From positions 1 through 39,472 of the forward strand of contig RBNJ01000140.1 in the NCBI GenBank assembly GCA_003990765.1: a stretch of DNA of 39,472 nucleotides, in the 5' to 3' direction. The notes under the pieces are model-generated. The model was given only the letters and a program-made list of their open reading frames with translations, was not told the origin of the DNA and did not search any database. Numbering within the stretch: the first letter of the stretch is position 1; the number at the start of each line of letters is the position of its first letter. Origin of the DNA: Jimgerdemannia flammicorona. Its lineage: Eukaryota. Below, in pieces: positions 121-39,085 of this stretch. The translations under genes were made by a program, and so were the position numbers.

Positions 121-937
121 TGTAATAACTCTTACTTCTACCCCTCTCTTATCCTTAGGATAATTAGAGAAGTGAACTATTACTTAGAGACTTAGTACAC
201 AATGTGTACCAAGAAGCCTTCAGTTTAAGAAAGTGCTTGCTTAAAGTAGTTTTAGCAGTAGTGCCTTATCTTTCAAAGGTCTTTCTTGGGTTTGCCTTCT
301 GTTTCAAAGGTCTTTCTCTTGTGCCGTATTTCAAGGGTCTTGTTCTTTGCTGTATACAGACTAAATTCATCTTGGAATTCAGGTTCAATGGGTTTACTTA
401 AGTCTTTGGGGATTTATATACTGGTCTCAGTTCTGGCAGAAGTTAGCTAGGCTTCTGGAGTTTGGTCAGAAACACTAGAGTCACTTAGAGGTCATTACTA
501 AGACTCAGGGGAATGTGTGTAGGGAGGGGGAACTTGATTCTTATATCAAGGACTGAACTAAAACTACTTTATTTCAGATGGAAACTGGGGGGTATTTATA
601 CAAGTTGGTCTGCAATTTCTAACTAAGTATGAGTGACTAATTTGGTAACTATAATGAGGTTTGTAATCGCGACCTTTGTCAGGTGGTTTTTGGTAAAGAA
701 TATCTTTGTGATCAGGACCTCAATTACTAGGCAGTGATCAGCAGCTGTGGCAACTGTTGCTGTAGCACTGATTGTTGGAGATAAGCTGGATATCATTTTC
801 TGCATTAATTTGCATTGTTCATCACTCACTATTCATATATCACACTCAATTGTATGATGATATCATTGCTCGCCGGGTCACATGCTCACTCATCATTTGT
901 CGCATCCCATCTGTTCGTGCTCTTTCATTCTATTACA
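121..937 (-). repeat. 3' LTR of Gypsy-1
   Basis: TGTAATA...TATTACA termini; direct repeat of 8495-9311; adjacent to the PPT. Confidence 0.97.
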
Positions 938-950
938 TTCTTCCCCCCTT
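938..950 (-). other. Polypurine tract of Gypsy-1
   Basis: Minus strand reads AAGGGGGGAAGAA directly before the 3' LTR. Confidence 0.9.
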
Positions 951-2334
951 AGAAATCAATATTCTCGTTGATTGAGAAATTGAGAACCAGGGGAGAGAAA
1001 GGTGGGGAATCCTCCTCAGGGTCATTACCATCTTCTTCAAGAGCAGGGGGGGTGGTGGTTGCAGATGGCTCACTGTCCAGAATGGAGAAGTCAATGAGGT
1101 CTGCAAATGGTTCTTACATTGGAATAGGTGCTGGTATAGGGGTTCTCCATCTGATGCAGTTGGGACCATCCAAGTAGGGCTCTTGATCTTCATGCCTAGG
1201 AATATCCATTTGGATAGGCAGTCCTTCAAAGAGGTCAGAGAGACCTTAGAGCCATTGGTCAGAGTTGTCATTCAGGAGGGGGCTCCAGTAGGGTTCATAG
1301 TCAGTAGACTTGAGGGCAATCCAGGAGTTGGCTTCTTGGGCAACCTTGACTTCTAGGGCATCGACCTCAGAGAAAGAGAGGTTCTGGAAGTCCTTCAGTT
1401 ACATGTAGTTGAGGTTGGGGATCACGAAGGGTGCATGGCACATGATTTGATGGACCTTCTTGGCAAGTCTTTGCTCGTGTCTGTTAGGTGGGTCCAATCA
1501 GAGACTTGGTCCATGGGCAGGTCCTATACCTATTGGAGGAGTTGATGGCCAATCTCGTATTCATACCAGATCTCTAGGCAGCTGGTAGCAAGGTAGGCCA
1601 TTTCAATAATTTCATGGTGGTCAAGGACATACTGTCCTAGGTCTGGGCTGGAGAGGTTAAGGGCCTCTGAGCAGCGGTTCCTTTCTTGGATGGCAACCTG
1701 GATGTGTCCAAAGAGGCGTTCAACCTGGCTAGGGAGGGGCTGGCTATGGCGGGCAGTTTGGCAGCAGGTGGCAGGCATTCTTGTCTTGTCTTTTCTTTGT
1801 GAGGAAAGGGGGATGAGAGTTGCAGGGTATTCTTGCCTTGGGTCTTTATACTTATTCACCTGTCTGATGTGACCTTCCTTTGGTCATACTTCCTGGCAAA
1901 ATGCATGACCTGTGCTGTAAGCAGGATATGTGCTGGTCACATGAGAAAATCCTGATTTCAAAGATCTCATCACCCATAGTTGTGGTTACACAGGGTTAAC
2001 AGGTCTTGGTCCACTTTTTTTTTGTCTGGTTGGCATATTTGCGAGAACTGGCCATCCTTGTCTAGGGCGAGGGCTCCCATTGTCGTGGCTGGGGGTTCGA
2101 ACCTCTCGGAAATAGGCTTTCTTGTAATTCGAGGCAATTCTTTAGTAACAATATCTGTCATGTGGATGACTTAGACTGGTTTCGACATAGTCAGCTTTCC
2201 TAAGTTTCAAATGAAGCATCTGTTATCATCCAGCAGAAATGACACAGATGGCGTAAAACAGAGTTGTTCAAATGTATTTTGCTGTACTGTACTAGATTGT
2301 TCTTTTGCTTGGTATCTTCTTATTGGTTATCCAT
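949..2334 (-). pseudogene. Extra ORF3 between pol and 3' LTR, unknown function (best-supported core ~949-1865)
   Basis: Homologous to 31557-32923. Stops are single transitions that differ between copies, a 21-nt indel preserves frame, and the stop codon overlaps the PPT. The 5' limit is uncertain. Confidence 0.6.
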
Positions 2335-2439
2335 AGTGTTCCTTTTTCTCTGCAATGTTTGGTATTTTATATTTCCAGTTAAAAATATGTGGTACCCTTC
2401 TGCTCACTGTGTGCTCCTATACTTAGAGCTGTAGTTCCT

Positions 2440-2625
2440 TCCTTTGCTGGGGGGTGAGTGTTTCCATGTAGTCCTGGAGGGCTTCACGTACATTCTTCAG
2501 GGCTTCTTCTTTTTCCCAGGTAGCATCATGGGTGGGGTAACCCTTCCACTTGATCAGGAAAAAGCACTTGACTGTTTTGGGATATTTGCAGACCTTGTGG
2601 TCAAGTACTTCCTCAATTTCGAATT
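2440..2625 (-). other. Integrase C-terminal chromodomain (group I type)
   Basis: EFEIEEVLDHK...FFLIKWKGYPTHDATWEKEEAL; aromatic cage residues F, W and Y are present. Confidence 0.92.
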
Positions 2626-2779
2626 CCTCATGATCATTGATCCTAATTGGGGGTGGTGGTGGAACTGTATGCTCAGGGAATGGGTTCTCATGGTAGTCCA
2701 CCAATTGGCTGATGTGGAATACTGGGTGTACTCAGATATTGTGGGGAAGTTGCAACTTGTAGTTAACTTCACTGATTTT

Positions 2780-3720
2780 TTCCATAATCTTGTATGGTCC
2801 AATTCTTCTAGCACAGAGTTTCTTGGCTGGTTATTATGCCAGAGTGTCTGAGTGGAGGTGGTCTGTTCTAAGCATGACCTTGTCACTAATATTGTAGGAG
2901 GCTTCTCTTTGCTTCAAGTTCGCATACTTGATCTGGTAGTCTTGTGCTTCAATGAGAGCATCTCTTGTCATTCGGGTGAGGTCAGAAATGGTCTTGGCCA
3001 GATCTTGGGCTGCTGAGACTGCTGATTTCGCAGTAGTACTTGGAGTCCTTGGGTGTTGACCATGGTTCAGGAAGAATGGAGTCTTCTTTGTAGAGGTTTG
3101 CTGACTGTTGTTGTAGGCAAACTCAGTATGAGCTAGGTACTTGTCCCAATCATTTTGCTTATAACAGCAGAAGATGCTAAGCATCTGTTTGAGAGTCCTG
3201 TTTGTTTGCTTGTTTTGACCATCAGTCTGAGGGTGGTAGGCAGTAGAGAACTTCAGCTTGGTTCCATGGAGGGAGAAAAATGCCTTCCAGAAGTTGCTTG
3301 TGAACTTGGTATCTCAGTCAGATACAATAGTGCTAGGTATGCCATGTAGCCTGAATACTTGATTGAGGAAAATCTTGGCAATCTCTGGTACTGTAGCAGT
3401 AGTCTTGGTGGATACAAAATAGGCTTGTTTACTTAGGCAGTCCATGAATACCATGATGGCATCCCATCCTGCCTTGGTCTTGGGGAGTTGGACAATGAAG
3501 TCCATTGCAATCTGGTCCCAATTGTGACTTGGGATAGGCAAGGGTTGCAGGAGTCCTGCTGGTAGCTTGTTACTACTTTAGAATCTTTGGCACATCTCGC
3601 ATGAGGCCACAAAGTCTTTGATATCCTTAGTTATCTTTGGCCAGTAGCACTCTCTTGAGAGGAGGTTGTAGGTCTTTTCAAAACCAAAATGTCCAGCTGC
3701 AGGGGTATCATGGAGTTCCT
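2780..3720 (-). other. Integrase domain (HHCC, DDE core, GPY motif)
   Basis: HDTPAAGHFG...[38 protein letters not shown]. Confidence 0.93.
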
Positions 3721-3959
3721 GTATGATCTTGAGTCACAGAGTATTATTGCTGGGTACAACCACTCTGTCATGGTCCCTGTAGATAAGTCCATCATGGTAG
3801 GCAAATCTCTTGGCCATTTGCCTCATGGGTTCTGGAACCTCGGCCTCTGGGTCTTGGCAGAATTGAAGGAAATTCATCAGAGGGCTGTCTTGCTGGTAGC
3901 CATCCTTGATCATTTGGGTAAGGTCTCCAATTACTTTGACCATGAAGACAAGTTCGTCT

Positions 3960-4330
3960 TCCAAGTACCTGGAGAAACCATCAGCCACACGGTTGGTTTT
4001 GCCTGGGATATACTTGATTTCCATATCAAAGTTGGTAATGATTTCCATTCAGCGGACTTGTCTGTAGGTCAGAATAGGCTGTGTGTGAATATACCACAGT
4101 GCATGGTGATCTGTATAGGCCACAAATGGCTGTCCTAGGAGAAAATAGCACCATTCTTGGAGTACAGTGACAATAGCCAGGAGTTTCTTCTCATGGGTGG
4201 TATACCGAGTCTCAGCTGGCTTGAGCTTCTGTGAAAGGTAGGCCACTGGGCAGTCTTCTTGGCTAAGCACTGCTCCAATAGCATTATCAGAGGCATCTGT
4301 GGTCAGAGTGAATGGCCTGGTAGGGTCAGG
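3960..4330 (-). other. RNase H domain
   Basis: FTLTTDASDNAIGAVLSQ...YTTHEKKLLAIV...YTDHHAL...YIPGKTNRVADGFSR. Confidence 0.93.
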
Positions 4331-4479
4331 TGCAATTAGCACTAGGGCTTCAGTAAGGAGTCTCTTGAGGTGGTCCATAGCTAGAGTGTATTTGGGGGTC
4401 CATTCAGCTTTGATGTTCACTTCTTTGTGGGCCAGACTGGTCAATGGGGCTGCAATAGCAGAGTATCCTTGGATAAACC

Positions 4480-5150
4480 TTCAGTAATAACTGGCAATAC
4501 CTAGAAAGCACTGGAGTAGCTTGAGGGTTGTAGGGATAGAGATATCCTTGAGGGCTAATATTTTCCAGGGGTCCACGTTGATACCTTCAGCAGAGATGAT
4601 GTGTCCTAGATATTCAATCTGGTCTTGGTAGAACTTGTATTTGCTCATCTTGGCATAGAGCTGGTGTTCTTGCAGGAGGGTTGGTACTTGTCTGAGATGG
4701 GTGTAGTGTAGCTCTACTGTCTCGCTGTAGATTAGTATATCATCAATATACACAAGGACACAGATGTTGAGGAGTGGTCCAAAGATGTCATTCATCAGAT
4801 ACTGGAATGTTGCTGGTGTATTGGTCAATCCAAAAGGCATGACTCAGAACTGGTAGTGTCTAAACCGTGTTCGGAAAGCTGTCTTCTCAATGTCTTTTTC
4901 ATCAATGAGAATCTGGTGGTAGCTATTTCACAAATCCAGTAGAGAAAAGGTCTTTGCCTTGAAGATTTGGTGTAGCAACTCATAAATTCTGAGCAAGGCA
5001 TACTGATTCTTGATAGTGATCTTGTTGAGGGCTCTGTAATCAATACACATTTGCAGAGAGCCATCCTTCTTCTTGACAAATAGAATGGGGGCTCCAAATG
5101 GAGAGTGGCTGGGTTCAATGTATCCTTGGGCCAGTAGTTTGGTCAATTCA
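4480..5150 (-). other. Reverse transcriptase domain
   Basis: [53 protein letters not shown]. Confidence 0.96.
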
Positions 5151-5489
5151 TCCTTGAGGGTCTTGAGCTCAGGTTGAGCCAGTTGATAGATACTCTTGTA
5201 TGGGGGTTCAGATCCTGGAATAAGATAAATTCCATGTTGGATTTGGCACTTGGGTGGAAGTCCTTGAGAATCTTGAAATATATCTTGGAATTCTTCAAAT
5301 AGTTCTTGAGCTTCTGTTGGAATTGGACTACTTGTAGCTTCAGTGACTTCTTGTCCTGTAGAGATGAAGTAGGTGTTTCCCTTTTTTTTGAGATAGTCTC
5401 TTCATTTGAATGGCAGAGATGATTTCGATTCCTTGGTAGTTGGTACCTTCCTGGGGTGTCAGGGTGATCTTTCTGCCTTCGTGGGTCAG

Positions 5490-5820
5490 GTTAACCTCAT
5501 TAGTTCTCCAGTTGATGTCTGAGTTATGCTGGGTCAACCAGGCTTTTCCTAAGATAATGTCTTGTCCTGGGAGATCTACAATGCTGAAGTCCAACTTCTC
5601 TTGATATTTGCCAATCTTGAGCAAAAGGTCTTCACAGATCTTGGTCAATGGTGCAGTCTTTCCATCACCAAAGGTAACACTTCTTTTCTCAGTAGTTGGT
5701 CTGCTTCAGGCTCTAATCCTCTTGGCAGTCTTGGTGCTGATGTAGTTTCCAATAGCACCACTATCAAGCAAGACATTGACATTTTGTCTGTAGACTTGGC
5801 CTGTAAACTTGATGCAACTA
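5490..5820 (-). other. Aspartic protease domain
   Basis: VNVLLDSGA catalytic motif near 5755-5780; DIILGKAWL. Confidence 0.9.
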
Positions 5821-6140
5821 TCCTCCTTCTTGATGGTATTGAGCTCTTCATCCTCGTTATTGTCCCAATTGCTGTCAGTCTCCTCGAAGTCAGTTTCTCC
5901 CCATCCTTCACAAGGAGGGTTGTCTTGTTTGGGTCCCTCAGTCTGTTGAGCTTAGCGCTTCTCGGATTGAATTTTGAAAACTTTGGAGAGGCATGTATGG
6001 CATTCACCAACATGTTCCATACAGTACATTCAAATAGAATGAGGGCATCATCCACATGGTGCATAACCATATGCAATTCTCTTGTACCAGTTTTCATCAT
6101 CTTCCTTCATAGTAGTGACCTTTTGACTGGGAGGTTTGTT

Positions 6141-6530
6141 GGTAGATCCAAACCCTTTCTTGCCACGATCTGTCTGGGAGAGTTCAGGGACTTCTTCAAT
6201 AGTGAGATCTTGATGGATTTCTTCAATGATGGCTTGGGCAATTCTTTGGCCTGCTTTGACTTCAAATGATGTGTCTCCAAAATTTCGCAATATGACATGG
6301 ATTTCACCAGTAAATCCTTGATCAACTACTCCTCCGCCTAGCCCAATGTTGAACTCTTTGGCTAGGCTACTTTGCTCAGCAAAGCAGATATATGTTCCTT
6401 TGGGAGCTTGCATTGCAATTCCTGTTTGCACTGTAGCATTGGTGCTTGGTGGGATAGTGAGGTCTTGGCTGCTGTAGAGGTCATATCCAGCATCAGTTGG
6501 GTGGGCCTTAGTGGGGATGGTAGTCTTGTA
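6141..6530 (-). other. dut: Trimeric dUTPase domain inside the polyprotein
   Basis: All five motifs are recognisable: AGYDL, (R/Q)SSLA, GVVDQGFTGEI, GQRIAQAI, RGKKGFGST. Confidence 0.95.
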
Positions 6531-6639
6531 CCATATCTTCTGTACTTTGATGATATTCTCAGGGTTCTTCTTTACTGGGCCTTCTCCAATAACAGTAATG
6601 TTCTTGTTACTGGGTTCGCCTGTTCTATTCTTCTTTTCA

Positions 6640-7604
6640 GAGCATCTGAATGAGATGTTTCCTGCCTTCTTACAGATAAAACACAATCCCTTTTCATGGA
6701 GCTGCCTCTTTTCATCCTCAGTGGGAGGTCTGGATCCCCTGGGGTTTTGCTGGTTCCTTTGATCATTCTGTTGATCATATCTTTGATCATTCCTCCTGGT
6801 AGGATTTCTCCTATCTTAGTTATCCTTCTTGTATTCTTGATTTTGTAGAGCTTATGTAGCAAGGATTTTGCAGGCTCTTCTTTGTACTTGGACAAAGCAC
6901 CATGAGTAGTGGGGACATCCTTGGGGGAGACCTTGTTCCTTGATCTTCTGGGTGAGCCAGTCTGGTAGGACTGCAAAGAGATAGTTGGCTCTGGTACCAT
7001 TGATGGCCAAATTGTTCTCCTGATAGGTAAGTCCAACAGTTTTGAGATAGGCATCCATTCTGGTGACAAAGATCTCTAGATCCTCTTTGCCATTCTTGTG
7101 GAACTTCATCTGGGACAGTTTGTTCCATGTTTCTTGTATATAGGCCACATTTTGGAATTTGGTCAGTAGCAAGGCCTTGAGTCCTGGGCCTGCTTCGTAG
7201 TCATCCTAACCTGGTCTATTGTTGCCAGGTACTTGTCCATTGACTTGAGGGTGGGCTTCCCAGGTTACTGGGTGTTGTTCCAAGATTCGCCAGAATTCGG
7301 CTGCTGTTTCAGTGAAGAATGTGGCTACTATTTCTACTTGTACTACTGATGTGGCAAACAGCTGTTGAAGGGTGCTGTTCTGGTTGTTGGTGAGCATTCC
7401 TATAGGTACTCAGTTGTCATTCCATTGGTTTGCTCGGTAGCCTGTGTCAACTGCATTGATGAAGTTTTCAATGTTACTGTTTTTTCCACTAAATGTTGGA
7501 ATTCGCAAGGTCTTGGTTGGTTTGTTCTGTTCAGCAATCTGTCCTACTATCCCTGCTAGTGCTACTAGCTGGGTGGTCAGTGCTGTAATGTTGACATCTA
7601 CCAT
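6640..7604 (-). other. gag: Gag core with CCHC zinc knuckle
   Basis: IPTFSGKNSNIENF gag-type motif; knuckle CFICKKAGNISFRC (CFICKKAGHISVKC in Gypsy-3, a perfect CX2CX4HX4C). Confidence 0.85.
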
Positions 7605-8479
7605 TATGTTGACTAGTGGTGATGGGCCTGTTAGGGTAGATTCTCCTGAAGATTGATCTGCTTGATGGGGTTGTGGTGCTGTATGACTTGGAGTTACTTG
7701 GTTCCTAGATATTAAGTCAAAGAGTCCTGTGAGAGAGGGTAAACCAAACCTCTATATAGGTGGCTGAGTTGGTTCTGGGGTCTGATCTTCTTGACCTGTG
7801 GTTCCTTGGTAAATTTCTAGGCCTGCTGTTCCTCATTGACTATCGTCAGACTGGTAACCTGTAGAGTCTTCGTCTGACTCCCTTCCCTGATGAGATAGTG
7901 CATCCTTGTACTGACTAGGTCTTTCAAAGAGGATATCAGTCTCTGGCTGGGTTGATGGACCTACTCCTTGTTCAGCAGTAGGGGATGTGTGACCTGTTTA
8001 CTCATTCTTGTACCTAGTTATGGCAGAGGCATAGTATACAACTAGTCTGTAGTAGAGGGAGGTCTTGGTTGGTGTATGATGATACCTGTCAGAGGCAATC
8101 CACTTGGCAGCTGCTTCTCTTACAGCAGGGGGTGTAATATAATCTAAAAAATCCTAGGTGGCTGCAGCAGTAGATTCTGGGGTCCTAGTGATTCCAATGT
8201 GTCCTTGGAGGAGTTCATAGAACCTATGGCAGCTAACAATATTCCTAAGACCTGGGTGGTATGTCCTAAATGTCTGGTATAGATCCTTATAAGCCTGGTC
8301 AATTACAAGCTGGTGGGTCCTTGGGTCTGTGGTTTCCTGGTACCACCTGGTCCTAATGGCAAGGGCTTCTCTGGCTCTGGTTTGGGGATCCACAGTTATT
8401 TCTGGGGGTTACTCCTGTCCAAGGTTGGTCTTGTTCCAACTTCAGGAGTGTGTTCTTTATTGTCTTCTTGGCTGGTAAT

Positions 8480-8491
8480 CCACTGCTACCA
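8480..8491 (-). other. Primer-binding site, tRNA type (probably initiator Met)
   Basis: Minus strand TGGTAGCAGTGG, 3 nt after the 5' LTR; conserved at 27138-27149 and 39071-39082. Confidence 0.8.
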
Positions 8492-8494
8492 AGT

Positions 8495-9311
8495 TGTAAT
8501 AACTCTTACTTCTATCCCTCTCTTATCCTTAGGATAATTAGGGAAGTGGACTATTACTTAGAGACTTAGTACACAATGTGTACCAAGAAGCCTTCAGTTT
8601 GAGGAAGCACTTGCTTAAAGTAGTTGTAGCAGTAGTGTCTTATCTTTCAAAGGTCTTTCTTGGGTTTGCCTTCTGTTTTAAAGGTCTTTCTCTTGTGCCC
8701 TATTTCGAGGGTCTTGTTCTTTGCTGTGCACAGACTGAATTTGCCTTGGAATTCAGGTTCAATGGGTTTACTTAAGTCTTTGGAGATTTATATATCAGTC
8801 TCAGTTCTGGCAGAAGTTAGCTAGGCTTCTGGAGTTCAGTCAGAAACACTAGAGTCACTTAGAGGTGATTACTAAGACTCAGGGAAATGTGTGTGGGGAG
8901 GGAGGACTTGATTCTTATATCAACAACTGAACTAAAACTGCTTTATTTCAGATGGAAACTGGGGGGTATTTATACAAGTTGGTCTGCAATTTCTGACTAA
9001 ATATGAGTGACTAATTTGGTAACTATAATGAGGTTTGTGATCGCAATCTTTGTCAGGTGGTTTTTGGTAAAGAATATCTTTATGATCAGGACTTCAATTA
9101 CTAGGCAGTGATCAGCAGCTGTGGCAACTGTTGCTGTGGTGCCGATTGTTGGGGATAAGCTGGATATCGTTTTCTGCATCATTTCACATCATTCATCACT
9201 CGCTATTCATATGTTGCACTTGATCATATGATGAGGTCATCGCTCGCCGGGTCACGTGATTGCTCGTCATTCATTGCATCCCATCTGTTCGCGCTCTTTC
9301 ATTCTATTACA
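8495..9311 (-). repeat. 5' LTR of Gypsy-1
   Basis: TGTAATA...TATTACA, 817 bp, adjacent to the PBS. Confidence 0.97.
8967..8974 (-). promoter_or_regulatory. Putative LTR TATA box (TATAAATA) with AATAAA about 20 nt downstream
   Basis: GGGGGTATTTATA and TTTATT are conserved in all four complete LTRs (for example 593-600 and 568-573). Confidence 0.6.
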
Positions 9312-12300
9312 CAACCTACTCCAATTTTCCACTGCACCTCACCCTCACCTAATATCAAATGACCCTGACTCCCCACTATAATATCTTGTACTTAACTACC
9401 CCCAACTTCTGTTGCCTATCCTGGTACCACCAACCCTGTATTACTTCCCATACTAGCCAATGCCATTGCTCAACCAGGTCCCCAATTCTCATCCAACATT
9501 CGCCTTCAAAGACCCATCACCAGTATGCTGCCATTAAGACCCACACTCCTAAAATCCACCCAACACCTCCCCAAATGTCCCCAACATCTCCCACCAGTCT
9601 CCTCCAGATGATGACACTAATCGACTCTCCCAGCCTCCTTCTATCAGAGCCCCAATATTCCTCCAGCATCTGCCAATAGCCCTCCACCCCTGGACAGGCC
9701 TCAATGACATGCTCTGGGGTCTGAACTACTTCTCCAGAGCTCTCTGCACACCATTCACAATTTCTGCATCTATTGACCACCATCCATCCTGTCTGATAGT
9801 TCAACATGACATTCCTTCTCAGAAACCTCCACCAAACCACCCAATACCGAGGAGATACCACCTTATTCAGAGTAGTGGCCCATCTCCAAATTCTACCCCA
9901 TTTCCACATCTTACCAATACCAGCTGTCTGCCATCCCACCGGCCACCGCTCAAGAGGGCCTGACCTGGCCCATTCCATTGCCTCAACCAGAGAGTAGTCC
10001 TTCAGCTCCTTTCCTCCTATCCTAAGTAACTCAAGTTGCTACCACCACTGCTCAGGGTCCACCCCCTCCTCTATTGCTGCCACCTCTGGCCCCATTAGGC
10101 CCATCGTAAGCCAGGCCTCCACGATGCCCCACCAGAACCCTTTGAACTGCATTCTCCCCACAGACCCAACCTGAAGTAGCCCTCGCAGATCCTTCCTCTC
10201 CGTGCCCTAGAGGCAGAACCTGATCTTCCAATTGTCCATTGCCAATCTGCCCCAGCTCTCTTCTCCTAATTCCACTAGTTGGCGACCCCACCAGCCCCTA
10301 AGTGCCTTCAACCTTCACCGAAAGTCCACCAACCCCAAACCACCATTAGGAATTGGCCGCACTAATACTTCCCATCCAATCTGTGGCTGTCTACCCTTCC
10401 AGAGCCACCCTTCAATAGCCTTCTTGAGACACCACACTACCCAACCTGAGAAATCTAGGTGATAACCCAGGTACCACAGCTTCGGCAGCCAGTACACATT
10501 CAGGACCACCACTCTTCCTGCTAGAGAGAGGTTTCGACCAGCCCAATCCATCAGCACACCTTCCCATTTTTATACCATGGAATTCCACCACTCCTTCAGC
10601 AGAACAGTCCCAAAAACTGAAAACCATATCCCTAAGTACTGGACTGTCTCTTCCTTAGACACTACTCATCCAAGCCCTGCTACCCCTAAGTCTGCACCAA
10701 GCTCTAAGGTTTCACACTTCCTCCAGTTCAACTTTGCACCCGCCAACCCCTCATACTATTCTATTCCTTCCCTTAGAATGTCCACATCCTCCACACTGCT
10801 GAGCCCCACCACCATGTCATCTGCAAAGATCCCCAGTTGCTAAACTACCTCACCCATATGCTGTCTATTCAGCTGTCCTCTCAGCCAGGCCAGCACTGGC
10901 TCTAATGAGAGGATATAAAGAAGCAGAGAAAGAGGGTTCCCTTGTAGAACCCCTCTTCCCAAGGTAAACTCTGGACTGCTCCAGCCATTCATCAGTACTG
11001 CCCCTCAGCAGCCTCACACCAGCCCCATCAACCATCCAACCTCTCTTAGCTGAAATCCTACTTTCTGGAGTCCCGCTTCTAGGTAACACCACCATACCCT
11101 ATCATAGGCCTTCTCTTGATCCAAAAAGACTATCCTCCCATCAATCTGCCTACTCCTACAGCCTTCCAAAACATTTTGCACCCAGGCAGTACTGTCTCTA
11201 ATTTGCTGACCCTTCACAAAGCCCCTCTTCTCTTCTCCTATCAGTCTTCCAACCCACTGCTACAATCTTCCCACTAAGATTTTGGAGGCTAGCTTCCTGT
11301 TGACATTCGGCAGCATGATCGGCCGCCAATTACGCCACTCCCTCCTGTCACCTTTCTCCTTGTACAGCAAAGACACCAGACCCAAACTTCCATTCCCAAT
11401 CCACCTTCCTTCTTCAAGTACAAAATTAACCATTTCAACAAGCTAAGCTCCAAATTCCACCAGAAACTCCTTCCAAAATTCCCAAGGGAGACCATTCTCC
11501 CCTGACAAAGAACCACTCGGTGCCTTCTGCAAAACCTCCAACACCTCCTCCAAAGATACTCTGCTGAATACTGATGCTCCAATCTCTGGTAGTGACACTA
11601 CTGGCCAATCACATTCTAGAGGTGCCTCTGCAACATCCTCTACTCCAACACCCCCTCCCATGTCATCATCACTCTAAAGGGTCCGCCATTGTCCTGAGAT
11701 CTCCTCCAACATATCCACTATACTGGTGACCTCAACACTATCCTCTTGCAAAACTGAAGACCAGCTGTGTCGAACATTCCTCACCTTCAAGACACCAGAT
11801 AGGTACTTAGTCAGTCTTTCACTCTCTTCCAGTCATCTAGTCCTTAGGCACACTAGGAGCCCATCTACAACTCTATTCTCAGCCTCCCTCAAGGTTGCCT
11901 TTAAGTTGACTACTTCTCTAGTAAGTTGACCCTTCCTCTCTTCTGCCAGTGAACCATCCTTCAACAGCTTCAGCTGCCACCTCAGACCCCTTTCAACTCT
12001 CCTTTCCTTGTCCTTTTGCTCCTTTCCTACCACTTCTCTGGTGTCTCTCCAATATGCACCAGCAAGGTGCTTAAATCTGCCCCACCAATCTGCAATAGAT
12101 AGACCTCCAGCCACCCATCATCCTACTTCTTGTTGGGTCACATGGACGAATCACTCTCATTCTGCTGAATGCTGGAGCAGAGCTACATTGAGATGTCAGT
12201 ACCCGCCTCCCCCATTAATTGCCTGGAATCTCCCACTCACCTCCACTCCCCAATGGTCTGACCATGGGCACCACCATATCCCGACTGCATTGAAAACATT

Positions 12301-12945
12301 ACCCCAATGTTCAGCTACCAGCACCCAGTCAATCCATGTACCAACTATCCCATTGTCTATAGAATGCCACCTGGTAAAGGGGTCTGACCCATCTCCTGCC
12401 CTCAATCGTACACCATCCACCAATCCCATGCCCTTCTCCACCTAAAGCCACTGAGACAGCCCTGGAGAGACTGCTACCCCAGCCCTGCCATCAGACTGAT
12501 CTAGAGTACAGTCCCTAACTATATTAAAGTCACACACCAAAATGTCCAACCCTAGAGTCACTCAATCCTCCCAAGCCAGCCACTCCTCCACCCATTGCTT
12601 TCGCTCTCTGCCAACTGCTGGCAGATATACAGAGCCCACCAAGAGTCCATCTCCTTTCCCTCTCTTCAACCTTCCCCACACCAATCGATCACCAAAAAAT
12701 TCTATATCAACTAACTCCCCCTTCTCAACTTTAACCAGAATACCAACTTGCTTACTCTAACCCACATTCCCAAACCATTCCTGACTCCACAACTCATAGT
12801 CCTCCTCCCCATAGGCTCAAATATCTTGAAGAAATACCACATCATACCTCCAGACCTTCAACTATCGAAAGAGATGCCACTGCTTCACACCATCTTGCAA
12901 GCCATTGATATTGATAGACAGAATTCATAGGTCATACTTCATCAT
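9312..12945 (-). pseudogene. LINE-A ORF2 (AP endonuclease - RT - C-terminal Cys/His finger)
   Basis: ILSININGL; WIDWV...WSDH; GENGLPWEFW; FLDQEKAYDRV; FADD; YLG; CEWC...PEHVIEAC. Confidence 0.92.
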
Positions 12946-12959
12946 GGAAAATTTTGAGT

Positions 12960-14828
12960 TTAGATATCGACCGCCACTGCTGCCACCTTCTCAGCTCAGC
13001 CCTTAATGATGTCTTGATACTCCTCACAGACTGCTCACCAAATTCTTTCACCATTGACACTGCTGCAGAAGAAGTCCACTCACTTGGATGCCACCTTACA
13101 GATATCTGCCATTCGGTCATCATCTACCTCATACCCTTCATCCTCCAGAAGGGCTGCCACCATTGCAGTCACAAACTTCAGTCTCTACAGTGCCACCTTG
13201 AGAAATCCTTCCCACGTCTCCAGAGAACCCTGAAACACATCCACTTTCTTAATATCATCCTCTGCCAGCTCCTCCAGAACTGCCTGGAACCAACCATCTG
13301 CCACTATAGCCATCGGCCCCGGAGTTGCAGGCCTAGGAGTCTGGCAAAGCTCCTGAAGCAGTTCTCTGTCTGCTGAAACATCCAAAGTGACATCCACCAG
13401 CTCATCCTCTTCAGAGACCTTATCCAGCCTCACTATCTCCCCTGCTTCTAGACATTCCCAGTGTACATTCACTGACCTAGCCATCACCATGTCTTCCATC
13501 AGAGTTTCAGGAATTACCTCCACATTTTCTTTGAATCCTTCTCCTTGCTCTTCCTCACCACTCACCCACTTTCCTGTCACTGGTGTATGTGCTGATTCCT
13601 CCACTCCCCCCAACTGCAAGAAGGACACCTCCACCACCTCCACCCCTTCTATTTGATTCCTGTCAGATGCTACCCTTTCAACCTCCTCCTCCTCAGATGC
13701 TTGCAGCACTGCCTGCAGCTGCTCCCAGTTCATCCTATGCCATCGCTTCCTCTTGCATTCTGTCTCAATCCAGATCCAATCCTTAGCAAATTCCTCCCAT
13801 TTTCTTTTCCACAAAGCCTTTGCCTCATCACGCTCCTCGAGGGCTATCAGCAGCTCCTCTTCTTCCTGCTCGGAGCCTTTCCTCCTCCAGACCCAGCAAT
13901 GATGCTCCCCAACATGAATGACCTCTGGCCAGTCTCGCCCCAAGCCAGTTGCCTCCTTTCCCTCCAGCCACACCATTGCCTCATAATTACCATTCCTCAA
14001 CTTGGTGCCCTCCCAAAATGTAAATCTGAAATCCACCATCTTGCCAAAGCCTTCCAGAGCCTTGGCGATCACCATCTTAGTCTCCTGCCTGCTCAGCATC
14101 AGCAGTCCTTCCACCACCAACCTCACTGCATGCGGGTCCTATCTCAGGCACCTCGCCATCCCCACCTTAACATTCTTGACCATCAACCCCTTCTCCAAGG
14201 CCTTCACCATGGCCTCCTCCTCAATGAATCCAACCTCTACCACCTCTGCCGAGAGGATAAACCTCAGTGACTCAGTCCCTGCAACCTCCTCACCCACCAG
14301 CCATAGAACTTCCTTGGCCAATAGACCAAGGCCCAAGAAGTTGGTGGAGACTGCCCACGACAACACTGACTTATGGAAGAACAGTCATACCACCAGCTCT
14401 CCAGTTCCTACTGCCAGAGTTACCTTGTTCTTACTACCAGATATGCCAGCCACCATCTCGCTAGGAGCTACTACACCACCAGCAGTCCCATCTCCAGCCC
14501 CCAGCCCAGCCCCAGGAAAGCCAGTCCCAGCTATCACACCCCTGCACCCCTGACCCCTGTCAGGTCCCTGGCCAGTCAGCTGACCAGTCACCTGACATCC
14601 ACCCCTGTCAACACTACACCCCTGCTGCCCCCCAACTGTAGGCCTAGCAGCTGCCCGCTTACTCCCCACCACTGTATGCCATCCACCCAATCCTGCTACT
14701 GATCTATGACCTCCTGTTTGCCCTCCAGCCCCTCCTTGACCAGCTGCTGCTGTGAAACTCTTGGGGAGGCCCAGGCCAGGTCTCCTCCTCTCTAGGCACT
14801 CTGAGCTTAATGAGCCTTAGGTCGCTAT
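12960..14828 (-). pseudogene. LINE-A ORF1
   Basis: Fragments at 14385-14690, 14139-14366 and 13185-14126 are homologous to ORF1 of LINE-B and LINE-C. Start is approximate. Confidence 0.8.
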
Positions 14829-15179
14829 ACTATGGAAACTTGATGGATTTGAATGAAACTTACTGTGAATTATTGCCAGACTTCTGCCACACCTTGCACA
14901 CCAGTATGAACGAAGTGAAAACTTGAAAACATATTGCTTTTCGCAAAAGGTTGTCTATGTGGCTTAGCTCGCTCCAAGTGGTTTGAGCAAAAGAAGTCTG
15001 TGATCAGGGGACTCCTTTTGCTCAAACTATTCAGAGCAAGCTAAGCCACATGGACATCTTTTCATGACAAGCAACACATTTTCAAGTTTTTCTGTCATCT
15101 ATTCTGGTGTACAAGGTGCAACAGGAGTCTAGCTACAGTATACAACAAGTCTCATCTGTTTCAGTGGAGTTTTCATCGG

Positions 15180-16990
15180 ATGGTAACCCAAGGTTCATCA
15201 AGTTCTAAGCATTTGGAAAGAAGGAGGCCTGGTCTGGGTCTTCCTAAAAGTTTTGCAGTGACAGTTGGAGCTGGTGTAGGGGCAAGAGGAGTAGGTGGTC
15301 AGGGGAGAAAGGCTGGTATTGAGAGTTGACACACAGTGATGGGGGGCAGGAGGGCAGTTACTAGGCCCATGGAGGTAGGGCAGGTGGGACATAGTATTGA
15401 CAGGGGTGACGGGTCAGGTGCCTGCTAGGGGCCAGGGGTCTGGAAGTAGTGTGGCTGAGACTGGTATTCCTGGGGCTGGGCCAGTGGCTGGGGTGACTGC
15501 TGGAGTGTTGGATAACAGAAAGAAGGCGATGATGGTAACAGGTTCTGATGAACTGGTGGTGTGTCCCTTCTTCCACAAGTTGGTGTTGACATGGACCATT
15601 TCAGCAAATTTTCTGGGACTGGGGATGTCTGCTAGGGAGGTCTTGTGGCTAGTGGGACAAGAGATTGCAGGGGCTGAGTCACTGAAGTTCATCCCATCAG
15701 CTAAGGTAGTTGAGATAGGATTTGTCAAGGAGGAAGAGATGGTGAAGGCCCTGGAGAATGGGCTGGTCATCAAGAGCATCAAGGTTGGTATGGTGAGGTG
15801 CCTGAGATGGGACCCATGGACAGTGTAACTGGTGATTGAAGGGCTGCCAACATTGGGGAGACAGGAGACCAAAGGAATGGCAGCAGAGGCACTGGGGGCA
15901 TTTGGTGAGATGGTTGATTTTGGATTCATGTTCTGGGAGGGGACTAAGCTGAGGAATGGCAATTGTGAGGTGATGGTGAGGCTGGAAGGCAAGGAGGCCA
16001 CAGGGCAAGAGAGGGATTGACCAGAAGTAATTTATATCAGAGGGCAGGAGTGTAAAGTGTGGAGAAGGAAGGGTTCTGAACAGGAGGAGGAGGAATTGCT
16101 AGTTGCCCTAGAGGCTAGAGAGGCTGCAAAGGAACTGCAGAAGTAGAGATAGAAGGAGTTTGCCAAAGACTGGATCTGGATCCCAATAGATGGGAGGAGG
16201 AAGAGGTGGCAAAGAGAAAACTGAGAGCGCCTGCAGACAGTCCTCTAGGGCTTAGAAAGAGAGGAAAAGGAAAGGAGCAGAGGAGGCCAAAAATCAGATG
16301 GAAGAGGTGGAGATAGCTGAGGTGTCCTTTTCACAACTAGGGGGTGTGGAGAACTCCACTCATGCACCAGTGAAGGGGAAGTGGGCTGATAAGGAGGAGG
16401 CGACCACTGGGGGCTTTGAGGAGGTTATCGAGGTGGTACCAGAGACCCAGTTGAAGGATGTTCGCATGGCGGAAGTGGCAAATGTTCATTGGGAATGCCC
16501 AGAAGCAGGTGAAGTGATTCAGCTAGAGAAAGGCACTGAGGAGGATGACCTGGTGGATGTGGCTTCTGATATATCAGCAGATAGAGAGATACTGCAGGAG
16601 CTGAGTAGGACCCCAAGGCCAGCCACTCCTGGGCCCATAGTGATGATGGTAGATGACTGGTATCAGGCAGTGCTTGAGGAACTTGCAGAGGAGGATATCA
16701 AGGAAGTGGATGTATTCAATGGATTGCAGGAGACCTGGGAAGGGTTCCTCAATGTGGTATTGCAGGGGCCAAAGTGGGTGACAGCGATGGTGGCAGTGCT
16801 TCTGGATGATGAAGAATATGAGGTAGATGAGGACCATATGGCTGATATCAGGAAGGTGGCATCAGAGCGAGTGGATGCCTTCTGCAGTGGTATGAATGAA
16901 GCCCGTATCTGGAGGGCTATCTGCGAGGAATGGAAGGCAATAATCTGTGGTAGGGCTGCAAAGGTGGTGGTGACTCCAGCTGAGCTCTAA
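15180..16990 (+). pseudogene. LINE-B ORF1
   Basis: Fragments at 15397-15828, 15832-16020 and 16298-16990 align with LINE-A ORF1 (for example FWEGTKLRNGN and TPRPATPGP). Confidence 0.82.
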
Positions 16991-17002
16991 ACATTTATAT
17001 CA

Positions 17003-20000
17003 ATGATGATGAACAGTCTATGTATATTATCACTAAATGTCAATGGTTTGCATGATAGAGTAAAGCGAAGGTATTTGTTTCAGTAGCTAAAGATCAGGAG
17101 GTATGACATAGTATTTCTGCAGAACATTTGGGCCTATGGGGAGCAAGATTATAAGGAGTGGAGCAAGGAATGGTATGGTAGTACAGGGTGGAATGAGCAG
17201 GTGGGCATCTTGGTTGGCTTGAGGAGAGGAGAGCTGAAGGAGATTGCGATATATGGTGACCGATTGGTCTGGGGGAGATTGAAAGGAGGAGCTGGCAATG
17301 AGCTGGTGGTTGGTTCTATATATCTGCTGGTGGTTGGCAGAGAGCAAAACCAATGGGTGGAAGGTTGGCTGGATTGGGGAGGCCGAGATGAGATTGGGCT
17401 GGACATTCTGAGAGGAGACTTCAATATGGTGCATGACAGGACACTAGATAGGTCTGATGGTGGAGTCGGTGTGGCAGTTTCTACAGAGCCTCATGATGGC
17501 TTCAAGTTGAGAAGGAAATGGGATTGGTTGATGGAGTATGACAACATCAAGGTGAGAAGTCAGGGCCATTCACTAGGTGGCATCCAATTGGTAAGGATTT
17601 GGTTAGCATAAGGATTGACTGGATTCTGGTAGCAGAACACTGGGGCAATGTTTTGGATTCAACAGAGGTATGGTGGTGTCCCTGGTCAGATCACTGGGGT
17701 GTGGAGGTATGTGGGAGATTCCAGGTGGCCAGTAGCAGTGGAGACAGATAGAGACTTAATGTAGCACTACTCAAGAGACAGGTAGAGCAGGATCAGTTTG
17801 TTAAAATTACAAGACAGGAAGTGGCATAGTGGAAGAACAGTGGCCAGTCAATAACATAGTGGTGGGGGAAATTTAAACATCTGGCAGATGCATATTGGCA
17901 TGATGTAGGAGAGGTAGCTGAGAGAGAGCAGAAGGATAGAGAAAGGAGAGTGGAGCAGGGACTTCGCTGGTGGCTGAGACTTCTGAAAGGAGAGAATACC
18001 TCAGGAGAACGATGCTCCCTATTGATCAAGGAGGTGGCTGAGTTGTGGTCAGATTTGAAGGCAGCAGAAGATAGGGTAGTGAATGGGTTGCTGGCAAGAT
18101 TGCGAGCAAAGTGATTAAAAGAAGGTGAACGACCCACCAAATACTTATCCAGAATCTTGAAGGCCAGGAGGGTGTGGCACAGCTGAGCTTCAGTGTTGCA
18201 AGAGGATGGAACTGAGGTGACTGATATCACAGATATGCTTGGGAAGATCTCAGGTTGATGGTGCACCCTATGGCAGAATGATGGAGGGCTGGTGGAGGGA
18301 GAGACAGCACTGGAGGCTAATAACAATTTGGTTGGCAGCTGGCCAGTGATGGCAGAGCCTGCAATTGGTGGGGCGGTAATGGGTAGGGTGACCCTTGAAG
18401 AGGTGTTAGAGGTTCTGAGGAAAGTGCAGGCTGGTTCATCACCAGGGGAGGATGGACTGCCTTAGGAGTTCTGGAAGGAGTTTTGAACAGAGTTTGGGGC
18501 ATAGCTCGTGGAAATGGCAAACTTTATGCTGGGGGAAGGCTGCTGGATTGGCAATGGCTCCTTAGGGCTAGTCTCTCTGCTCTATAAGGAGAAAGGGGAC
18601 AGATGTGTGTGGTGGAACTGGAGGCCCATCATGTTACTGAATGTGAATAGGAAGTTGGTCTCCAAGATTCTGGTAGGGAGAATGTAACAATGGATTGGCC
18701 AATTGGTGGGTGATGAACAGCAAGGGTTTGTAAGGGGGAGACAGATTCGAGACAGCACAGCCTGGGTGCAAAATGTTTTGGAGGGTTGTAGAAGCCAGCA
18801 GGTAGATGGAAGAATAGTGTTCTTCGACCAGGAAAAGGCGTACAATAGGGTGCAGTGGAACTACTTGGAGGTAGTACTACAGAAGGCCGGGTTTGGCATG
18901 TGGGAGGCTCGAAAACTAATGGGTCTGGTGTGAGGTTGCCAAGCAGCAGTGTTGATGAATGGGTGGAGTGGCCCAGAGTTTTTCTTAGGGTGAGGTGTGC
19001 CACAGGGGGATCCTCTTTCGCCCCTGCTTTATATTTTATCTTTGGAGCCCTTGTTGGCATGGCTGAAGGGGAGGATTACTGGGTTGAATATGGGGGATAT
19101 GGTTTGGAAGCTGGGGGCCTTTGTGGATGATATGGTGTTAGGGTTAGGCAGTGTGGAAGATGTGGCGAGCTTGCAGGAAGGGATAGGACAGTATGAGATA
19201 TTAGCAGGGGCAAAGCTGAACTGGGGCAAGTGTGAGATCATGGAGCTTGGAGCTGGCTTGGGGGAGCATAGACACTTTGGACAATTAGTTGGTCCTGGGG
19301 AGGCAGTTCAATATTTGGATATCTGGTTCTTGGTATATGGGATGGTGCTGCCGAAAGAGTGGTGGTGTGGATTGATACAGAAGTGGGAGAATGCCTTGGT
19401 GGGCTGATCTAGGAGGGGCTTCTCTTTGATTGGGAGGATTGTAGTCTTGAATGTATATTGGTTACCAAAGCTGTGGTACTTGGGATACCACCTGGACTTT
19501 CCAGGATGGGTGGTACAGAAACTGAAGAAGGTGGTTGAAGGATGGCTATGGCAGGGAAGGAGACCATAGATTAGTTGGGAGATAATGGTGATGCTGAGGG
19601 CAGATGGAGGTCTGGGGCTGGTGGACTTGAGAAGACATCTGAAGGTACTTTGGGGCTGGTGAGGTTATCAAATGGCAGAATTAGGAGGGGAGGGTTGGAG
19701 CAAACTGGCTATGGATAACTGGGAAGTTAGATTCTGCCCCCAGAGTGAGGTTTGGAAGGATATGCAAGGTTTGCTCCAGGTTGGAAGGGTTGGCAGGTTG
19801 TGCTACCAGGGATTCTGGTGGAGTATTGTGGAAGCTTGGCTAGTGATGGGACTTATGGGCCCAGAGCCTGGTGAAGAATAGGAGGACCTAGAACAGCAAT
19901 GGTGGCAATTTAGTGTGATTTATATTAGTGGCCACCTGTTGGTTGAATACTCTCTAACTGGGGCGATGGAGTGGATCCAGGCAGGTCTGCTTGAGAGGTG

Positions 20001-20637
20001 GCCAGTTGGTTGGCAGAAGGCTGGGTTTGGAGAAGAGAGGGAGTGGGGTCGAGTTTGGGGCTGGGGGACCTCACTACTCAAGATTGCCCCACCTAAGTTC
20101 TGGGTGGTATAGTGGCAATTTTTGCAGAGGAATATCATGCTGGGGTATAGGATGGGGTGGATAGTAGATGAGGGTGCAAAGGAATGTGAGTGGTGCTGTG
20201 AGCTGGATGGGGGAGTAGTGCAGATGCCGGAGCATGTTCTGGTGGCCTGTCCAGGGGTTGAAGGATTTTGGTGGACATTAGAAGGTTATTGGGGGGAAGA
20301 GAGTGGACAGGCAGGGGGCCCCACTTGTCAGATGATCAAGCATAGACTGGTGGGAGATATTGGGGACATTTGGGGAGGCCTGGGTCGGATTATCAGCATC
20401 TGGATGCTGATAGCAGTGCACTGGCAATGGGTGTTCGAGAGAGATCCTTGGATGGAAATTGGAGAATTGGTGGAGCAGTGGAAGGGGTTACTCCTGGAAG
20501 TGGTGCAAGGGTGGTAGTATCAGGGGAAGAGGCACCAGTTGGGGGCCATGAAGAAGGTGTTAGACATTGTCCAGAGGAGTCAGGAGTATCTCGTACTTAG
20601 TGAGAAGGGGGTGAGGTGGAAAGAAGGTGTAGACTGA
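17003..20637 (+). pseudogene. LINE-B ORF2 (APE-RT-zinc finger)
   Basis: ILSLNVNGL; GDFN; RIDW; SDH; PGEDGLP; WRPIMLL; QQGFVRGR; DQEKAY; VPQGDPLSPLLY; FVDD; CEWC...PEHVLVAC. Confidence 0.94.
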
Positions 20638-20785
20638 AGGGCTCTTCCTTGTATTATGATTTAATAGTCAAGGGTTGGGTTCATTGTTGTTCTAAGGTAA
20701 TCGATGGGATACATGGATAGTGTAATTCTATAGACTAGTGGAATAAAGGAGTCCAAGTGACTATAAAAAAAAAAAAAAAAAAAAA

Positions 20786-21125
20786 TTGTTGGGTTCCAGG
20801 TATAGGAGGGGACATCTATTAGGACAGGTGATGTAGATGTGAGAATTAGACTTCCAGAAAGGGAGGCCATATGGAAAACAAGTAACTGGCCCTCAGTGTT
20901 GATGTGGGGGGCTTTTGTATAAGGGTGTTGAGGGTGAGAGGGAATGAAGAGGAGGAAGAGGACTTGTTGGAGGCCCTGGAGAAGTTGAGTGGTACTGTTG
21001 AGAGGAGGGCAAAGGCCTGGAAATTGTATGAGGAGTCGATGCATTTATGGAAAGCAGATTCGAACTGATAAGAAGCAGTAGGAGTAGGCCCAGGGGTGCA
21101 GGAGGTAGAGAGAGTTGTTGGTGAG
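20786..21125 (+). mobile_element. Internal ORF1 fragment of a family-2 LINE (probable host element, possibly part of LINE-D)
   Basis: Aligns to LINE-C ~22025-22375 (EGTSIRTGDVDVRI, WPSVLMWGAF, EEEEDLLEALE, WKLYEES). Confidence 0.88.
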
Positions 21126-21207
21126 GCACCTTTCACTGGTAACATTCAGGTGACACAAGACTCAGACAACACTTTTGACAATGTTTTGGTGAAAAGCGAC
21201 TAGCAAC

Positions 21208-23235: not shown

Positions 23236-23266
23236 AGGATGGGATCACTTTCTGACATTATTCCTT

Positions 23267-26907: not shown

Positions 26908-26985
26908 GGGGATTGGTTAGGGGGTGGGTTTATTATATTTATATAGGATAGATGGGTGTAATAAAGGACAAGTCCAAGTGACTAT

Positions 26986-27014
26986 AAAAAAAAAAATAAA
27001 AATAAAAATAAAAA
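26986..27014 (+). repeat. Poly(A)-derived tail A11(TAAAAA)3
   Basis: Read directly from the sequence. Confidence 0.9.
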
Positions 27015-31545: not shown

Positions 31546-31558
31546 TCCTTCTCCCCTT
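31546..31558 (-). other. Polypurine tract of Gypsy-3
   Basis: Minus strand AAGGGGAGAAGGA before the LTR. Confidence 0.88.
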
Positions 31559-32923
31559 AGAAATCAATGTCCTCGTTGATTGAGAAATTGAGAACCAGGG
31601 GAGAGAAAGGTGGGGAATCTTCCTCAGGGGCAGGGGGGGTGGTTGTTGCTGATGACTCGCTGTCCAGGATGGAGAAGTCAATGAGGTCTGCAAATGGTTC
31701 TTGTATTGGAATAGGTGCTGGTGTAGGGGTTCTCCATCTGATGCAGTTGGGGCCATCCAAGTAGGGCTCTTGGTCTTCATGCCTGGGAATATCCATTCGG
31801 ATAGGTGGTCTTTCAAAGAGATCAGATAGGTCTTGGAGCCATTGGTCAGGGTTGTCATTCAGGAGGGGGCTCCAGTAGGGTTCGCAGTTAGTAGACTTGA
31901 GGGCAATCCAAGAGTTGGCTTCTTGAGCGACCTTGACTTCTAGGGCATCAACCTCAGAGAAAGAGAGGTTCTGGAAGTCCTTCAGTTGTATGTAGTTGAG
32001 ATTGGGGATTGCGAAGGGTATATGGCACATGATTTGATGGACCTTCTTAGCAAGTCTTTGCTCGTGTCTATCTAGGTGAGTCCAGTCAGAGACTTGGTCC
32101 ATTGGCAGGTCCTTTGTATGTTAGAGGAGTTGATGGCCAATCTCGTATTTGTGCCAGATTTCTAGGTGGCTGGTAGCAAGGTAGGCCCTTTCAATAAGTT
32201 CATGGTGGTCAAGGACATACTGTCCTAGGTCTGGGCTGGAGAGGTTAAGGGCCTCTGAGCAGTGGTTCCTTCCTTGGATGGCAACCTGGATATGTCCAAA
32301 GAGGCAGTCAATCTGGCTTGGGAGGGGCTGGCTGTGGCAGGCAGTTTGGTGGTGGGTGGCAGGTATTCTTGTCTTGTCTTTTCTTTATGAGGAAAGGGGG
32401 ATGAGAGTTGCGGGGTATTCTTGCCTTGGATATTTATACTTATTCACCCATCTGATGTGACCTTCCTTTGGTCATGCTTTCTGGCAAAATACATGACCTG
32501 TACTGTAAGCGGAGCATGTGCTGGTCATATAAGGAAATCCTGATTTCAAAGATCTCATCACCTATCTGTGGTTACACAGGGTTAACAGGTCTTGGTCCAC
32601 TTTTTTTTTTGTCTGGTTGGCACATTTGCAAGGACTGGCCATCCTTGTCTAGGGCAAGGGCTCCTATTGTCATGGCTGGGGGTTGAAACCTCTCAGAAAT
32701 AGACTTTCTTGTAATCTGAGGCAATTCTTTAGTAACAATATCTGTCATGTGGATGGACTTAGACTGGTTTCGACATTGTCGGCTTTCCTAAGTTTCACAT
32801 GAAGCATCTGTCATCATCCAGTGGAGATGATACAGATGGCGTGAAACAGAGTTGTTCAAATGTGTTTTGCTGTACTATACTAGATTGTTCTTTTGCTCAG
32901 GTATCCTCTTGTTGGTTATCCAT
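31557..32923 (-). pseudogene. Extra ORF3 of Gypsy-3 (181-aa open segment 31557-32102, extending upstream through TAA codons that are CAA-like in Gypsy-1)
   Basis: Homologous to the Gypsy-1 ORF3 region; ends at the PPT. Confidence 0.62.
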
Positions 32924-33013
32924 AGTGTTCCTTTTTTCACTGCAATGTTTGGTATTATATGTTTCCAGATAAAGATATGTGGTATCCTTTTTACTCGCTG
33001 TGTGCTCCTATAC

Positions 33014-38984: not shown

Positions 38985-39070
38985 AGTTGTTTCTGGGGGT
39001 TACTCCTGTCCAAGGTTGGTCTTATTCCAACTTTAGGAGTGTGTTCTTTGGTACCTTCTTGGCTAGTAAA

Positions 39071-39082
39071 CCGCTGCTACCA
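39071..39082 (-). other. Primer-binding site of Gypsy-3
   Basis: Minus strand TGGTAGCAGCGG. Confidence 0.8.
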
Positions 39083-39085
39083 AGT

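Follow-up and report, generated by a model that had tools for sequence, protein, structure and literature searches.

Does the additional reading frame that lies between the end of pol and the polypurine tract (PPT) of a fungal chromovirus encode a protein, and what might such a protein do for its element? The question is raised by a 39,472-nucleotide stretch of DNA from Jimgerdemannia flammicorona (contig RBNJ01000140.1), analysed here as a whole and referred to as the window, for which a sequence-only reading had proposed an accessory protein of 300–460 aa, encoded by positions 949..2334 in the env position. Conserved extra ORFs of LTR retrotransposons represent a long-standing gap, and reviews give their origin and function as unknown. 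The relatives described below, at least 148, 152 and 150 natural copies in three lineages of one genome, make transactivation, anti-silencing and RNA export directly testable.

Anatomy of the carrier element

The carrier (family A) shows a chromovirus layout, with the Ty3/Gypsy order of protease, reverse transcriptase (RT), RNase H (RH) and integrase together with LTRs, primer binding site (PBS), PPT and target duplication (Table 1). Pfam searches matched dUTPase, protease, RT, RNase H and a chromodomain, the latter at the C-terminus of the integrase (PF00385, E 5.6e-13). A third LTR of the same family (27013–27851), next to which about 130 nt of internal sequence are retained, apparently represents a third copy that is truncated or interrupted. 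Several decayed elements with strong GC skew occur in both orientations at about 9320–27000 and 28000–30700; these are probably LINE-like, and an RT match was located among them at 24917–25606. CpG in the region is down to 0.13–0.21 of expectation, and the genome contains four C5 DNA methyltransferase matches and 44 matches to one fungal transcription-factor family. Downstream of pol, a non-coding module of 300 nt is shared at 73–78% identity by a chromovirus and by Gypsy elements that lack a chromodomain, whether or not the ORF is present; it contains the B-box-like word GGTTCGAACC.

Table 1 Features of the window and of related contigs; positions refer to the window unless a contig is named.
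Feature	Position	Strand	Remarks
Ty3/Gypsy element, copy 1	121-9311	minus	LTRs, PBS, PPT, 5-bp target duplication
Target duplication CAACC, 5-bp	116-120 and 9312-9316		
3' LTR	121..937	-	main TATA near 600; AATAAA downstream
Polypurine tract	938..950	-	overlapped by ORF stop codon
Accessory ORF, copy 1	949..1778	-	ATG 1778-1776, TAA 951-949; 276 codons
TATA box, putative internal promoter	1845..1850	-	72 nt upstream of ATG; core invariant in 51/51 copies
Two GTCAC(A/G)T motifs	1867..1945	.	upstream of internal TATA; also in U3 of both LTRs (877, 9251)
Non-coding spacer module	1980..2330	-	73-78% identity to post-pol region of family C and of a Gypsy element without the ORF
Chromodomain (PF00385), end of pol	2423..2731	-	pol stop codon 2423-2425
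Protease, RT, RNase H, integrase region	2834..5705	-	decayed
dUTPase (PF00692)	6048..6815	-	upstream of protease
PBS	8480-8491		
5' LTR	8495..9311	-	91.3% identity to 3' LTR
Element, copy 2	about 30700-39472		
Accessory ORF, copy 2	31557..32366	-	269 codons; TATA 32438-32433
Spacer matches elsewhere	L089 1675-1979; L069 2551-2905; L091 2979-3281 and 7219-7521		
dUTPase in relatives	L077 4425-5546; L089 about 5000-5440		

Extent and state of the accessory reading frame

The extra ORF between pol and the PPT is a genuine gene. A sense-strand frame with the peptides quoted earlier is found in both window copies between the chromodomain stop (2423–2425) and the PPT, and its TAA (949–951) does overlap the PPT (938–950). 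The coding part, previously extended to position 2334, is restricted to 949–1778, while 1779–2334 is a non-coding stretch upstream of the ORF that shows no codon-position bias. Likewise, the product comprises 269 or 276 aa instead of the 300–460 aa proposed: the start codon ATG is kept in 46 of 51 family A copies and the TAA in all 51, a methionine marks the same N-terminus in 19 of the 20 stop-free copies retrieved, and the frame 5' of it shifts from copy to copy.

Neither window copy is intact. Copy 1 is broken by a 1-nt deletion near 1486 that is found in this copy alone and by five internal stops (1532, 1526, 1401, 1248 and 1116), and is thus not one continuous frame; copy 2 has lost the start codon and carries one internal stop at 32123. 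We rely on two samples of copies. The first consists of the best 30 of 40 scored DNA matches (89–100% identity) plus window copy 2, giving 31 copies chosen by DNA likeness regardless of open frames, two of which are stop-free; the second, of 51 copies, includes 20 chosen for open frames. A protein search, the ranking of which favours intact copies, scored at least 148 family A copies, 40 of them stop-free over the query.

Across the 31 copies, none of the sense-frame codons between the TGA at 32474 and the TAA at 31559 (copy 2 coordinates) is a stop in at least half of the sequences, and both bounding codons are present in all 31. Each of the other five frames contains 8–21 majority-stop columns over 32561–31557 in the same sample, and the openness of the sense frame exceeds chance. 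Frameshifting indels within the ORF are confined to single copies, and no frameshift is fixed by majority; the one shared indel is the frame-keeping 21-nt difference noted earlier, by which 22 of the 30 other copies differ from window copy 2.

Selection and decay

For codon-position counts and pN/pS, all CpG-touched columns were removed. Variants found in at least three copies fell on codon positions 1/2/3 in the numbers 29/24/58 within the ORF (p=1e-4), compared with 19/20/20 and no bias in the spacer (p=0.97). For variants present in at least two copies, the family A ORF gave a pN/pS of 0.46 (0.34–0.60), next to 0.52 in pol, 1.31 and 1.48 in the two shifted frames and 0.67–1.26 in the spacer, and the shared variants of families B (20 copies) and C (16 copies), introduced below, both gave 0.28. 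These results show that the ORF was under purifying selection while the elements multiplied, which supports the accessory protein of the sequence-only reading. Singleton variants of the ORF (pN/pS 0.85) are near neutral, as expected from decay after insertion.

The pN/pS values probably underestimate the constraint on the ORF, since the class of shared variants is enlarged by C>T changes that recur at CpA sites. Within 31557–34390 and related loci, C>T changes are strongly biased to CpA, with about 10% at ACA/GCA compared with 1–2% at ACT/GCT, and this RIP-like signature, beside CpG decay, accounts for recurrent stops. The commonest shared stop requires 11 changes for its 11 carriers, which led us to reject a stop-carrying subfamily copied in trans. 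A CpG-retention scan of families A, B and C, a weak and time-averaged proxy, revealed no protected zone; the fraction of CpG kept was 0.20 in the putative internal promoter, the most decayed part, versus 0.33 in pol.

Features of the predicted protein

The maximum Kyte-Doolittle value over 19 residues was 0.71 for the window ORF and 0.29–0.82 for five natural proteins of the family, i.e. no hydrophobic segment is present, and the absence of a signal peptide or transmembrane segment noted earlier was thus upheld, as was the conclusion that the protein is not env. The five proteins contain 0–5 cysteines, none of them conserved. Their first 40 residues are basic, less so in family E, and they end in acidic tails of 59–128 residues with 10–31 D/E versus 2–5 K/R. 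The tail carries aromatic and leucine clusters, and two short motifs, DLIxF and PxxLNF, are kept in families A, B, D and E and absent from C, while the tails of A, B, D and E are otherwise unalignable.

After a first AlphaFold model (pLDDT 40) had been set aside, an AlphaFold2 model based on a 30-row alignment yielded a mainly helical core of 211 residues (pLDDT 69, pTM 0.61) with a 37-residue helix and a small C-terminal hairpin; a Foldseek search with this model returned no match at E≤0.001 in PDB or BFVD, which is no evidence for a new fold, and its best VIA match reached Z 4.1 with an rmsd of 3.2 over 83 residues. Pfam scans of single proteins and of 30 aligned members gave no family match (best E 0.018; three weak, unrelated families at E≤1 for the 30 members) and no recognisable DNA-binding motif. 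Sequence searches of the PDB gave one match at E 0.4 and then none, and the ESM Atlas returned only unnamed or low-scoring clusters, its own model having a pTM of 0.17, an outcome that speaks neither for novelty nor for absence. We gave no weight to two further candidates, the repeat protein P0127 (E 4e-4) and P0135 (E 0.07).

Relatives in other element families

Database searches retrieved homologues of the ORF at 27–66% identity, all unnamed or hypothetical and mostly located on short contigs. Within the same genome, at least 152 matches belong to family B and at least 150 to family C. The family B elements (contigs L077 and L075) are dUTPase-bearing Gypsy elements with LTRs of 1.5 kb, both of which contain the ORF, and two elements of family C likewise have it in both of their LTRs, of about 2.3 kb; in either case the ORF is part of U3, upstream of the main TATA and AATAAA, and is preceded by the PPT. 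In families A and D, the gene is instead placed directly 5' of the PPT, contig L051 of family D showing ATG, ORF, TAA, a purine tract and then an LTR-like start, with pol off the contig. Neither L077 nor L089 showed a chromodomain downstream of the integrase. With homologues inside both LTRs of two non-chromodomain Gypsy families, the proposed tie to the env position of a chromovirus is not supported, and the finding that L087, a chromovirus of the same genome, lacks such an ORF indicates that the gene is not generally needed. The query P0123 gave no match in the genome of the window at the strict threshold of E≤1e-75.

An RT-RH tree placed B and C as sisters (98/95) within a group (100/96) that includes non-chromodomain insect and plant rows, and A falls among unnamed chromodomain-bearing rows with weak support (86/76), the tree being one without named reference elements. 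The row C_L082, which comes from a different element whose pol lies close to a family C LTR, was left out of family C. The identities of the ORF (A–B 44%, A–C 35%, B–C 28%) disagree with those of RT (A–B 36%, A–C 36%, B–C 43–45%), which points to cassette exchange between lineages. Transfer of the gene among the three lineages is the simplest reading that we infer from these comparisons. A dUTPase is found in all three ORF-bearing families, before the protease in A and between protease and RT in B and C. Overall, three Gypsy lineages encode a selected, soluble accessory protein, either at the 3' end or within U3.

Several further observations concern these relatives. Contig L078 contains two tandem D-like ORF copies at 5000–8100 that are extremely AT-rich and show RIP-like hypermutation, and its LTR resembles that of family A. 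The LTR flanks of L075, L077 and L085 show that B and C apparently insert at ATAT-like sites, which differ from the 5-bp CAACC duplication of the window element. On L095 and L097, tandem repeats of about 70–80 nt follow the family C ORF in U3, and words of the GTTGC/GGCAAC type are found repeatedly in LTRs of families A, C and D.

A putative promoter upstream of the ORF

A TATA-like site was found 61–87 nt upstream of the ORF start in 51 of 51 family A copies, at 86–90 nt in all 22 copies of family B and at 80 nt in the single copy of family D. In family C, the pattern matched one of 13 rows, one row being mis-cut, and a weaker TTATTTAA-like site can be seen by eye at about −63. The same pattern had no match in 550 nt of spacer, 1382 nt of pol and 806 nt of ORF in copy 2. 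With 8 nt, the TATA box is the longest invariant run of the 644-nt non-coding stretch among 51 copies, longer by one base than the longest of four other invariant runs (6–7 nt), in a stretch where A/T columns are often invariant (238 of 359). An exact 20-nt leader before the ATG is common to B and D despite their different gene placement. In families A and D, U3 and the vicinity of the internal TATA both contain the motif GTCAC(A/G)T, which was not found 5' of the ORF in B and C.

The recurrence of the TATA box at 61–87 nt in all 51 copies suggests that the gene has a promoter of its own. Moreover, because the ORF of B and C lies upstream of the main LTR TATA and AATAAA, its 5'-LTR copy could be read neither from the main LTR promoter nor by splicing, so that a separate promoter would be needed, which fits the TATA evidence. 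Thus, we regard an own promoter as likely. A spliced transcript, for which the sequence-only reading had suggested looking, fares less well, given that the in-LTR location in B and C and the TATA box make splicing appear less likely than independent initiation.

Possible functions of the accessory protein

Our preferred reading is that the region constitutes a mobile gene cassette, consisting of a TATA promoter, a short C/A-rich leader and the ORF of 269–276 aa, carried at the 3' end of a fungal chromovirus that has a dUTPase. The ORF would be transcribed from its own promoter into a short mRNA that ends at the LTR polyadenylation signal, independently of the gag-pol RNA, and the protein may act in trans on element expression, as a transactivator or as a counter-silencing adaptor, in a genome that appears to methylate and mutate its repeats. 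By analogy with foamy-virus Tas and with the gene23 of maize Grande, which probably works in this way too, we assign such a self-promoted, trans-acting regulator a probability of roughly 0.45. The C5 DNA methyltransferase matches, the CpG depletion and the charge distribution of the protein count in favour of this reading. Against it stand the Pfam scans without a recognisable DNA-binding motif, the CpG-retention scan without a protected zone, the family C rows without a canonical TATA, the small margin by which the TATA box is the longest invariant run, the absence of GTCAC(A/G)T ahead of the ORF in B and C, and the chromovirus L087 without the gene.

A broader version of this proposal, tentative and still rather doubtful, sees an undescribed regulatory family, in which a promoter-plus-ORF cassette moves between chromoviruses and non-chromodomain Gypsy elements as well as in and out of U3. 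Within U3, every solo LTR would become a self-expressed gene acting in trans on several families, a circuit with the Tas- or Sag-like layout of complex retroviruses that could possibly serve counter-silencing. Apart from this broader version, the findings indicate that a chromovirus can swap its accessory cassette with distant Gypsy lineages and that solo LTRs can encode protein.

Among the alternatives, an RNA-handling factor that binds the genomic RNA, possibly at the 300-nt spacer, and promotes its export or translation would suit the basic N-terminus and the conservation of the spacer (73–78%) between distant lineages. That a Gypsy element can encode a protein of this kind is documented by CERV of Cer1 from Caenorhabditis elegans, a novel regulatory protein distinct from env for which an export function was shown (PMC10309623). 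According to the same source, however, CERV is made from a spliced mRNA, and neither splicing nor export is indicated for the gene described here. In addition, spacer and ORF are unlinked, as family B has the ORF without a spacer match and L091 the spacer without an ORF match, which weakens a pair of the Rev/RRE type; the spacer shows little shared structure (SCI 0.26 and 0.35, no clear common fold), and an Rfam scan over 100–2500 gave one chance match (E 4.5). We consider this function unlikely.

An improbable alternative is a Nef-like cytoplasmic adaptor, or a helper of the particle or of integration, the tail motifs DLIxF and PxxLNF of which would dock on host machinery for trafficking, autophagy or degradation. 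In its favour, these two short hydrophobic motifs persist in acidic tails of A, B, D and E that can otherwise not be aligned, DLIxF may resemble a clathrin-box motif, and nef and sag likewise occupy U3. Yet family C has neither motif, and a factor bound to capsid or integrase should follow pol, whereas ORF and RT identities diverge in opposite directions (44% versus 36% for A–B, 28% versus 43–45% for B–C).

For an env-like protein, or one for cell-to-cell spread made by splicing, the position between pol and PPT in family A and an acceptor-like sequence ahead of its ATG, in which AG follows a run of pyrimidines, could be cited; this reading is nevertheless very improbable, considering that B and D lack such a run, that the 5' LTR location in B and C is unfit for a spliced 3' gene, and that the protein has no signal peptide, membrane segment or conserved cysteine. 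Finally, a chance open frame or a passive host fragment without a role for the element, to which the two broken window copies, the scarcity of stop-free copies in the DNA-likeness sample (2/31) and the near-neutral singletons might point, is hardly tenable, as pol decays alike (0.98 versus 0.73 stops per 100 codons in the ORF), shared variants are constrained in three families, homologues can be aligned down to 27% identity, and the commonest shared stop arose separately in all 11 carriers.

Comparison with known systems

Judged by their sequences, the homologues form a protein family without a Pfam match, and neither this family nor any ORF within the LTRs of fungal Gypsy elements was described in the literature searched, from which subscription papers were mostly absent. 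The placement of a protein gene within or overlapping U3, as in B and C, recalls sag of MMTV and nef of lentiviruses. Sag is a membrane glycoprotein and Nef is myristoylated; the accessory protein, by contrast, lacks a membrane segment and has no Pfam match to either. Anti-silencing factors of the VANC type cause local loss of methylation at target motifs of their own family; the CpG-retention scan, as a weak and time-averaged proxy, showed no corresponding protected zone in A, B or C.

Extra ORFs of LTR elements have been treated before (PMC3248453), including those of plant Gypsy elements (PMC7264820). For fungal Gypsy elements, a figure legend names an 'add. ORF' of unknown function, and dUTPase-bearing chromoviruses are covered as well (Novikova 2010, PMC2864245); this legend comes without sequence, position or promoter, so that the comparison with the accessory family is one by description only. 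In bdelloid rotifers, ORF3 types occur on unrelated LTR lineages, several with dUTPase, and comprise env, GDSL esterase or DEDDy exonuclease genes (PMC5408684). The same extra ORF on unrelated lineages and its modular exchange are parallels to the present case, but the cited rotifer ORFs belong to recognisable families, whereas ours is of no known family and varies in position relative to the PPT.

Closer to the preferred reading, gene23 of maize Grande is transcribed from its own upstream promoter and has a nuclear product (PMC7264820), and Retand carries TRP28 ORFs between pol and the 3' LTR (PMC11963269). Both resemble our case as family-wide conserved extra genes in the interval between pol and 3' LTR. 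As described, they are antisense genes of plant non-chromoviruses, while the fungal ORF is in sense orientation, matches no Pfam family and occurs in LTRs as well.

Foamy Tas has about 300 aa, and Pfam includes a foamy Bel model. Tas/Bel1 resides in the nucleus, has an acidic activation domain and acts on targets in both the internal promoter and the LTR (PMC517496). Host and element class are different here, Pfam scans gave no sequence match, and the accessory protein is known from sequence only. The parallels to Tas as described would lie in a gene near the 3' end, an internal promoter, an acidic domain and target sites in both promoters, for which the putative counterparts in our families would be the TATA box that A, B and D keep at a set distance from the ATG, the motif shared between U3 and internal promoter in A and D, and the acidic tail.
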